DNA of 64,000 bases, from the sequence record PZ256263.1; one strand, 5' to 3'. Made by a program: the position numbers and the translations under genes. Below, one piece after another: positions 43,520 through 45,158 of this stretch. The first letter of the stretch is position 1, and each line of letters begins with the position of its first letter. The stretch comes from a phage. The notes beneath the pieces are model-generated. The model was not told the origin of the DNA. It did not search any database and was given only the letters and a program-made list of their open reading frames with translations.

Positions 43520-44167
43520 ATGATGGCGAAGAAAACAACACCTACAAGATATCGAATTCATGGAATCCCAATCAAATATATCTCAAACTATGAAGAGTTC
43601 TACAAGGTGAACTGGAAAGTGGTTCACAAGTTCTTTATGTATGATATCAGGGATTACCATGAAGCAGAGGATGTGGCACAGGAAGTGCTCTTGAATGCTT
43701 GGAGATTTGTCTTCGCTAAGCAGGATGAGAGAGTCCTAGAGGATGAGAAAGACCAAGAGCATATGACTTATCGAGTCAAGAATATTATCTGGTCTATACG
43801 CTCAAATAGGCAGACTGTAGGGGACCGTCGTATCTACTCTATTCCAGAGGCTGATATGTTCCGCACTCCTGATATGGTTGATAGTCCTTTAGAGATTGCG
43901 ATGGATAAGCAAGACTCTGTTGGTGACCCGTTCATGGAGTCTCGTATCTTCTACTTCTTCCAAGATTTAAGTGATACGATGGATACTCAGAAGTTAGCCA
44001 ATATGTTCTCTATGATCTTCTTGGGAATACCACACGATCACATTCAGAAAACTATTGGCATGTCACATGGAACTTTCTACCGACGTTATGCAGAGTTAAA
44101 AGATCTGTATGAATATATGGTAGAGAAGCACTTTGATAAAGAAGAGTTTCAAGGGTTGATTACATGA
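43520..44167 (+). CDS. Phage-encoded sigma-70-family (ECF-like) sigma factor, 215 aa
   Basis: Region-2-like [15 protein letters not shown] and C-terminal region-4-like HTH ([22 protein letters not shown]). Confidence 0.65.
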
Positions 44168-44556
44168 AAGTGATAGTCGCAGGAAGCCGGTCAATAGACT
44201 GGCATTCTTTCACTCAGATGTGGGCTTTACTTCCAGAGGAAATCCCTAAGCTCATTTCAGAAGTTGTGTCAGGTGGTGCTAGAGGGCCAGATCTTCACGG
44301 AGAGGTTGTCGCTAAGCACAACGATATACCCCTCAAACGTTTCATTCCTTCTTGGAACACACTCGGCAAAAAGGCTGGGATACTACGAAACGTAGATATG
44401 GGTGATTATGCAGATGCAGTTATAGTCTTCTGGGATGGAGAGTCAAGAGGTTCTATGCACATGTTTGAGTATATGAAGAGTAAGAATAAACCGGCAATCC
44501 TCCTTACTAAGAAAGGAGATAAAGCAGATATGGAAATCACTGGAGAGTGGAAATGA
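44164..44556 (+). CDS. SLOG/DprA-like Rossmann-fold protein (DUF2493-like), 130 aa
   Basis: [10 protein letters not shown] ... [11 protein letters not shown] ... [14 protein letters not shown] pattern; family assignment from memory. Confidence 0.4.
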
Positions 44557-45158
44557 ATGGTGAGTCTAAACCTTTAGTAGTAATTCTTAATGGACCTCCG
44601 GGTTGTGGGAAAGATACAATAGCTAGTGCTTGGGTTAATGCACATTCATACCATCACAATCATTTAACCAAATCCTTCAAGGAGCCGATGTATAGAGTGG
44701 CTGCTGCTGCACTAGGAATGCCTCTAGAAAACTTCCTAGCACGCTATGAAGATCGTGAATGGAAAGAAAAATCTAGACCAGAGTGGGGAGGGAAGTCTGT
44801 AAGAGATTTGATGATTTCTACAAGTGAAGACTTCTTAAAACCTATGTTTGGCAACAATCATATGGGGAACCTCGCTGTAAAGAGCATCAAACAAGAGGAG
44901 TTAGGTCAGGATGACATTATTGTTTTTACTGACGGAGGTTTTGATGCAGAGGTACGAGAACTAGAAAAGAATTTCCATGTCCAAGTTGTCCAAGTGCTTA
45001 GAGATGGTTGCTCTTTTAATGGAGACTCTCGTTCATACATTGAAGGGGAGCAGAGAAAAACATATCTGCTGTTTAACGACTCAACTATTGAATCAGCAGT
45101 GTTAGATCTAGATTGGATTATCGCTCAAGCTCAGGATGATATTTATGGAAGAAGTTAA
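44547..45158 (+). CDS. P-loop nucleotide kinase (dNMP-kinase-like), 203 aa
   Basis: Walker A ILNGPPGCGKDT; size and layout resemble T4 gp1-type kinases. Confidence 0.55.
   Translation: MEMNGESKPLVVILNGPPGCGKDTIASAWVNAHSYHHNHLTKSFKEPMYRVAAAALGMPLENFLARYEDREWKEKSRPEWGGKSVRDLMISTSEDFLKPMFGNNHMGNLAVKSIKQEELGQDDIIVFTDGGFDAEVRELEKNFHVQVVQVLRDGCSFNGDSRSYIEGEQRKTYLLFNDSTIESAVLDLDWIIAQAQDDIYGRS

Follow-up and report, generated by a model that had tools for sequence, protein, structure and literature searches.

Do a SLOG-domain gene and a P-loop kinase gene that overlap in the genome of a phage act together, and, if they do not, what is the SLOG protein likely to bind? The question arises from a 64,000-nucleotide (nt) stretch of phage DNA (record PZ256263.1, hereafter the window), which comes from a Kuravirus, i.e. 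a phiEco32-like coliphage, and which over positions 43500-46000 shares 94-98% nucleotide identity with phiEco32, SU10, SGF2 and ev_rybdy3. A first-pass annotation of the bare sequence had placed two open reading frames (ORFs) at 44164-45158, downstream of a sigma factor, one for a tentatively assigned SLOG/DprA-like Rossmann protein and one for a nucleotide kinase, and had suggested that the pair could serve either nucleotide salvage or, as a sponge or modifier of a nucleotide signal, an attack on signalling-based immunity of the host. Both ORFs are indeed present there (44164-44556, and 44547-45158 if the second is read from a GTG), with homologues far beyond chance expectation (E-values down to 3.9e-81 and 1.3e-122, respectively). 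The identities proposed for the two genes stand, and it is their pairing that has to be given up.

The reading that we favor, at a probability of roughly 0.55, is that these are independent genes of a middle-class operon for replication and nucleotide metabolism, whose only connection is through overlaps for translational coupling, as is typical of that operon. The kinase would convert deoxynucleoside monophosphates (dNMPs) to diphosphates (dNDPs) and thereby feed phage DNA synthesis. The SLOG protein, a minimal stand-alone YAcAr/DUF2493 domain with a pocket that apparently resembles the one in which DprA accepts a base, would bind a nucleotide unit without catalysis, most likely one within single-stranded DNA (ssDNA). 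As such it would be an accessory module that targets DNA during replication or repair, possibly aiding a DarG-type macrodomain encoded two genes upstream in removing ADP-ribose from DNA, and would have no role alongside the kinase.

Adjacent genes without a conserved partnership

Linkage was assessed in 80 viral loci fetched around homologues of the SLOG protein and another 80 around homologues of the kinase, with neighbors sought within 6 kb. The ORFs of these loci were called mechanically, the neighbor counts, obtained with newly built hidden Markov models (HMMs) or single-sequence searches, are lower bounds, and the IMG/VR loci among them are not phylogenetically independent. Outside the Kuravirus group the P-loop kinase was found near SLOG at 0 of 69 non-redundant loci, and outside the Gordonclarkvirinae SLOG was found at 0 of 77 kinase loci. 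Among close relatives each gene also occurs without the other. A locus identical to that of phage NJ01 (L004) encodes a 95%-identical SLOG protein followed by an unrelated kinase of phrog_26149 with a DUF3310 domain, the domain that the characterised nucleotide kinase T7 gp1.7 carries at 81.5 bits. The complete genome of ECBP2 has the sigma factor followed directly by the P-loop kinase, with no SLOG, Macro or DUF3310 anywhere in it. At 80% identity or above, the phage collection holds about 69 records with the SLOG gene, about 39 with the kinase and about 42 with the Macro; the kinase is present at 60-80% identity in 26 further records, a number equal to that of the region matches at 60-80% nucleotide identity, ECBP2 being the one of these 26 that was checked.

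The kinase gene itself carries traces of an exchange. In phiEco32 its product, gp34 (positions 7054-7947 of locus L001), is a chimera of 297 amino acids (aa), whose first 96 aa are what is left of a phrog_26149 gene for a DUF3310/T7 gp1.7-like kinase and run into the P-loop kinase at GGxHYKP; this remnant has been lost from the 201-aa allele seen in the window, SGF2 and ev_rybdy3. The architecture of the chimera indicates that one nucleotide kinase was replaced in place by an unrelated one. Fusions tell a similar story: in the best 150 representatives of the SLOG family we surveyed the extra regions with a length of 70 residues or more, and of the 39 found none is the P-loop kinase or a DUF3310 domain.

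The overlap of the two genes had been given as 10 nt, a figure that requires the mechanically called GTG start at 44547. The kinase most likely starts at the ATG at 44553, leaving a 4-nt ATGA overlap, because a GGAG (44542-45) lies at a spacing of 7 nt from this ATG and of 1 nt from the GTG, the deposited annotations take the ATG, and homologues open with M-x-KPLVV at the equivalent residue. The junction of the sigma factor and SLOG genes is an ATGA as well (44164-44167), and the kinase overlaps the start of the following exonuclease gene (45145) by 14 nt. Since all junctions along the run of sigma factor, SLOG, kinase and exonuclease genes overlap, overlap characterizes the operon at large and does not single out the SLOG and kinase genes as a pair.

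The genes that recur near SLOG encode ThyX, two phosphoesterase families, ribonucleotide reductase (RNR), MazG, DUF3310, DNA polymerase A and a FEN-type exonuclease. As a control we used 80 exonuclease-centred loci, in which DUF3310 appears at 29 of 80, RNR at about 25 of 80, ThyX at 13 of 80 and SLOG at just 3 of 80. DUF3310, whose gene lies directly 3' of SLOG in NJ01 and in Aeromonas phage BUCT695, was considered as a specific associate; its 17 occurrences within 6 kb among the 69 SLOG loci, all on the same strand, set against the 29 of 80 controls, show that the association is not specific. A link to ThyX, suggested by 10 of 135 immediate neighbors, was likewise dropped in view of its background frequency in the controls; RNR and the phosphoesterases too lie near SLOG at background frequency, and Macro shows no enrichment (2 of 69 SLOG loci versus 2 of 80 control replication modules). 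As these neighbors occur at control frequency, the neighborhood is what replication modules of this type hold in general, and SLOG is a sporadic accessory gene in them.

These counts bear directly on the proposal of a nucleotide-salvage pair, in which the SLOG protein would bind, deliver or make a dNMP, or regulate the kinase, with the overlap ensuring stoichiometric co-expression. Such a pair would account for the adjacency and the coupled 4-nt overlap, for the sister phages in which a nucleotide kinase, albeit of another fold, again follows SLOG, for the SLOG-guanylate kinase fusions mentioned in PMC9503650, and for the frequent genes of deoxynucleoside triphosphate (dNTP) metabolism nearby. 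We nevertheless regard it as very unlikely, given that ECBP2 has the kinase without any SLOG and that DUF3310 is no more frequent near SLOG than in the controls. Taken together, the null counts from both sides, the single-gene variants of the NJ01 type and of ECBP2, the remnant in gp34, the lack of fusions to the P-loop kinase among the best 150 representatives and the operon-wide overlaps show that SLOG and the kinase are operon neighbors and not a dedicated two-gene system; that they lie side by side is a chance outcome of how one phage lineage packs its operon.

As for the kinase on its own, the Walker A motif and the resemblance to dNMP kinases noted in the first-pass annotation hold up: the motif reads LNGPPGCGKDT, and a fold search returned a P-loop fold of the NMP-kinase kind, with T4 Dnk as its nearest match, although no Pfam, NCBIfam or PADLOC model was reached. 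By fold and family the protein is a T4 gp1-type dNMP kinase, and its predicted activity, dNMPs to dNDPs, would amount to an ordinary supply of dNTPs.

The SLOG pocket

The SLOG protein matches PF10686 (YAcAr, formerly DUF2493) at 28.2 bits, which with a gathering cut-off of 28.2 is a borderline match, and PHROG 289 at 7e-25. PF10686 is present in most of the 333 homologues found, some of which also have a sub-threshold DprA match, and the relatives that were scanned score 25-59 bits against it; among the NCBIfam and PADLOC models the protein has no match. Fold searches recovered a three-layer Rossmannoid sandwich whose sheet has five parallel strands, with SLOG structures as the nearest matches, so that the tentative SLOG assignment is borne out and an unrelated fold is not indicated. 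When the PDB was searched by sequence, using single proteins as well as profiles, just weak DprA and generic P-loop matches came back, and the folds of both proteins come from the fold searches. The family is large, with 34,936 cluster representatives (50% identity) at E <=0.001; it occurs in 409 of 50,697 phage records, ranging from N4-like to jumbo phages, and also in giant viruses.

In a family alignment of 75 sequences G7, R9, G37, G41, D43, W64, A71, G72, R75, N76, M79, S94, G96 and M100 are invariant, and S8 is conserved in at least 90%. Motif 1 of DprA (G-S/T/A-R) is thus represented by G7-S8-R9. In the Helicobacter pylori DprA, R52 of this motif, together with R143, N144 and G164, grips a thymine of ssDNA inserted in the pocket (PMC3950713), and in a weak profile alignment to DprA it is R9, R75, N76 and G96 of the SLOG protein that fall on these four residues. 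The stretch equivalent to the PGGxGTxxE motif of LOG reads G92-E-S-R-G96-S-M-H-M100, with the invariant M100 in the position of the glutamate, as judged from motif register and helix position. By motif register M100 also takes the place of E403 of ThsA, which binds the ribose hydroxyls of 3' cyclic ADP-ribose (3'cADPR); the window protein is a single domain with no fused effector. Because the residues of the DprA base pocket are kept and the glutamate of LOG and ThsA is replaced by M100, we infer a DprA-like, non-catalytic pocket.

The same substitution bears on the idea that the protein is a LOG-like nucleotide N-glycosidase reshaping the (deoxy)nucleotide pool, for instance by destroying a host nucleotide, within phage dNTP metabolism. 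The dNTP genes around it that might suggest such a role are the background of replication modules, the protein is closer to DprA and YpsA than to LOG, and with the PGGxGTxxE glutamate being an invariant methionine by motif register, we consider this the least probable of the readings discussed here.

Fusion partners and the upstream macrodomain

The fusion survey points to DNA as the common theme. A DarG-type Macro is fused to SLOG in two of the representatives (P0225/P0247), once N-terminally and once C-terminally. The SLOG-Macro fusions of loci L012 and L027 match NCBIfam DarG at 4.7e-51 and 3.3e-51, respectively, and, sharing 76% identity, were counted as one event; the Macro portion of the L012 fusion is 36% identical to the window macrodomain. 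NADAR is fused in four representatives (P0314/P0306/P0353/P0278), in both orders, and RNase HI in two (P0256/P0252). For the recurrent fused domains of the P0358, P0224 and P0310 types, and that of the 553-aa P0340, a sequence search of the PDB gave no identification. Fusions to an SF1B helicase (ICP1 HelB) and to DciA have been published, and fusions to HNH and 3'-5' exonuclease domains are mentioned alongside those to guanylate kinase in PMC9503650, which also describes NADAR as an antitoxin to DarT-type DNA ADP-ribosyltransferases. Given that a helicase, RNase H, DciA and two antitoxin hydrolase families directed against DarT-type enzymes have DNA in common, a DNA-directed SLOG protein is favored, and the location of its gene in replication modules, and in the middle class, agrees with this.

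Of the genes around SLOG in the window, the macrodomain gene is the only one with fusion evidence tying it to the family. Its product matches NCBIfam antitoxin_DarG at 1.1e-41 and PADLOC DarG at 7.7e-45, and it is a candidate phage counter to DNA ADP-ribosylation by DarT. At the NJ01-type locus (L004) it was not found in the 12 kb examined.

The Macro and NADAR fusions fit just as well a protein that binds or degrades a soluble NAD-derived molecule (ADP-ribose, an isomer of cyclic ADP-ribose, or a related immunity signal or toxin), acting as a sponge, a sensor or a glycosidase that shares work with the macrodomain; sensing or processing of soluble ADP-ribose derivatives is the published prediction for viral SLOG domains of the YpsA clade. 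We take this to be possible, albeit somewhat unlikely. The position of ThsA E403 and of the LOG catalytic residue is an invariant methionine by motif register, the fused Macro is of the DarG type, i.e. an enzyme acting on DNA, and other fusion partners are DNA enzymes. Moreover, the frequency of Macro near SLOG is no higher than in the controls, the gene belongs to the middle class and not to the early one, and no PADLOC family was matched.

Several observations nonetheless weigh against an ssDNA-binding, DprA-like SLOG protein. Motif 2 of DprA (F/L/Y-x-x-R-N/D) is incomplete, R75 and N76 being invariant while the aromatic position (F140 in DprA) is the invariant Gly72. The window protein has no match to PF02481 (DprA), and the relatives reach 17-23 bits against a cut-off of 29.6. 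With 130 aa, compared to about 205 residues for the DprA domain, the protein is without the parts that serve DprA for dimerisation and RecA binding, and its predicted isoelectric point of 7.97 is only mildly basic. The residue equivalences derive from motif register and one weak profile alignment, and that of Glu to Met does not come from a printed structural alignment. LOG and ThsA use the same pocket positions to bind free nucleotides, which makes a soluble ligand equally compatible with them, and the Macro and NADAR fusions have been read in the literature as pointing to soluble ADP-ribose derivatives. Finally, about 27 Kuraviruses have the SLOG gene without a Macro of the window type.

A bolder version of the DNA-directed reading, which we find doubtful, would make the YAcAr SLOG a compact DprA-derived module for recognition of ssDNA, perhaps of ADP-ribosylated bases, that guides a DarG-type Macro or NADAR to phage DNA; phiEco32 gp35 and gp37 would then be a split counter-defense against DarT-type enzymes.

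The operon and its relation to known systems

The order of sigma factor, SLOG, kinase and exonuclease genes is the same in the deposited relatives, in phiEco32 as gp36, gp35, gp34 and gp33, of which the last three are labelled 'GTP-binding domain', 'dNMP kinase' and 5'-3' exonuclease (Table 1). In phiEco32 the cluster that holds SLOG and the kinase is of the middle class, and a promoter upstream of gene 40 has been published (PMC8948821). The two exact copies of the element TAATGTATA in the window coincide in position with the published promoters P40 and P26, and the one at P40 likely drives the operon with SLOG and the kinase; with up to one mismatch allowed the count of this element in the whole window is at chance level, so the argument is one of position.

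Table 1. Coordinates of the SLOG and kinase genes and of surrounding features in the window
Feature	Position	Strand	Basis or remark
Middle/late promoter element of phi32_gp36, exact copy of TAATGTATA	41693-41701	+	upstream of gp40 homologue
Terminator-like hairpin, 7 bp with 5 GC pairs, then T-run	42529-42546	+	right after gp40 homologue
Stand-alone DarG-type macrodomain, phi32_gp37 homologue	43057-43500	+	Pfam Macro 2.1e-10; two genes upstream of SLOG; start as annotated in phiEco32 (mechanical ORF begins at 42979)
Strong sigma-70-like promoter match, TGGACA-18-TATAAT, 11/12	43472-43501	+	just upstream of sigma factor gene, within end of Macro gene
Phage sigma factor, phi32_gp36 homologue	43520-44167	+	phrog_1740, 2.6e-45; annotated so in phiEco32; first cistron of overlapped run
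SLOG-domain gene, phiEco32 gp35 homologue, 130 aa	44164-44556	+	Pfam YAcAr/DUF2493
Shine-Dalgarno-like GGAGAG for ATG at 44553	44542-44547	+	read from sequence
P-loop dNMP kinase gene of T4 gp1 type, homologue of phiEco32 gp34 lacking its N-terminal extension, 201 aa counted from ATG	44553-45158	+	
5'-3' (FEN-type) exonuclease, next cistron after kinase	45145-45963	+	phrog_107, 9e-65; start transferred from deposited annotations
HNH endonuclease gene	46143-46544	+	
Gene for 1488-aa Ala/Glu/Lys-rich protein	47065-51531	-	phiEco32 gp26 homologue (annotated 'hypothetical')
Second exact copy of TAATGTATA	51525-51533	-	upstream of 1488-aa gene

Scans for sigma-70 promoters and terminators returned counts at chance level, and the promoter ahead of the sigma factor gene is a candidate. 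The hairpin separates the middle promoter from the Macro, sigma factor, SLOG and kinase genes and may attenuate read-through. HNH endonuclease genes are scattered through the operon, differing in number and position among sister phages (including one at 6566-7033 of locus L085); ECBP2 has one between kinase and exonuclease, which fits the cassette-like variability of the region. The 1488-aa protein, whose ECBP2 homologue is labelled 'putative liver stage antigen', probably functions as a virion or ejection protein. In the closest outgroup phages, Proteus 3H10_20, Salmonella pSal-SNUABM-01 and Aeromonas BUCT695 of the Grimontviridae (L163-L165), SLOG has as neighbors a PnuC-like NMN/nucleoside transporter, a gene of the nucleoside 2-deoxyribosyltransferase family, RNR and DUF3310; the record of the PnuC-like gene as a 'nicotinate ribosyltransferase' looks wrong (Pfam NMN_transporter 1.4e-24).

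The SLOG-kinase pair as such is of little importance, both genes being already catalogued in the databases, and the SLOG family and the ADP-ribose idea have likewise been published. The interest lies in the YAcAr/DUF2493 family, which comprises about 35,000 sequence clusters and for which functions have been predicted. Whether its ligand is ssDNA or a soluble ADP-ribose derivative would decide the published prediction, and the answer may reveal a common response of phages to toxins that ADP-ribosylate DNA. Phages of the phiEco32 type, with their natural variants with and without SLOG and Macro, offer a convenient system.

Among known systems, DprA and ShosA, the former a recombination mediator that binds ssDNA through a Rossmann fold, differ from the window SLOG protein in that the latter is shorter by about 75 residues, has no SAM domain and no elements for dimerisation or RecA binding, carries the invariant glycine in place of the motif 2 aromatic residue and does not reach PF02481. 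With the SLOG domain of ThsA, the 3'cADPR sensor of Thoeris, and with the LOG phosphoribohydrolases it shares the fold of the superfamily and phosphate-binding loops rich in glycine, and by motif register differs in having Met for their Glu. The kinase is just 19% identical to T4 gp1, the deoxynucleoside monophosphate kinase (PDB 1DEK). A T7 gp1.7 (DUF3310) type kinase fills the equivalent slot after SLOG in the NJ01-type Kuraviruses and in BUCT695, its fold being unrelated to that of the P-loop kinase of the window, where DUF3310 was not found. Burroughs and co-workers, as relayed in later papers, reportedly placed YAcAr (DUF2493) in a YpsA-related clade of the SLOG superfamily in 2015. The same placement in the YpsA-related clade is given by Iyer et al. 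(2022). With this PF10686 family the window protein shares HMM and fold; its members are usually stand-alone in phages, with sporadic Macro, NADAR and DNA-enzyme fusions, and no feature sets the window copy apart from them. Closest of all are the counterparts in phiEco32, SU10, SGF2 and ev_rybdy3, which at 95-97% protein identity for SLOG and 92-100% for the kinase are orthologues; phiEco32 gp34 differs from the window kinase in keeping its DUF3310-type N-terminal remnant, and the 'GTP-binding' label of gp35 is a legacy name that finds no support here, the protein being a member of the YAcAr SLOG family.
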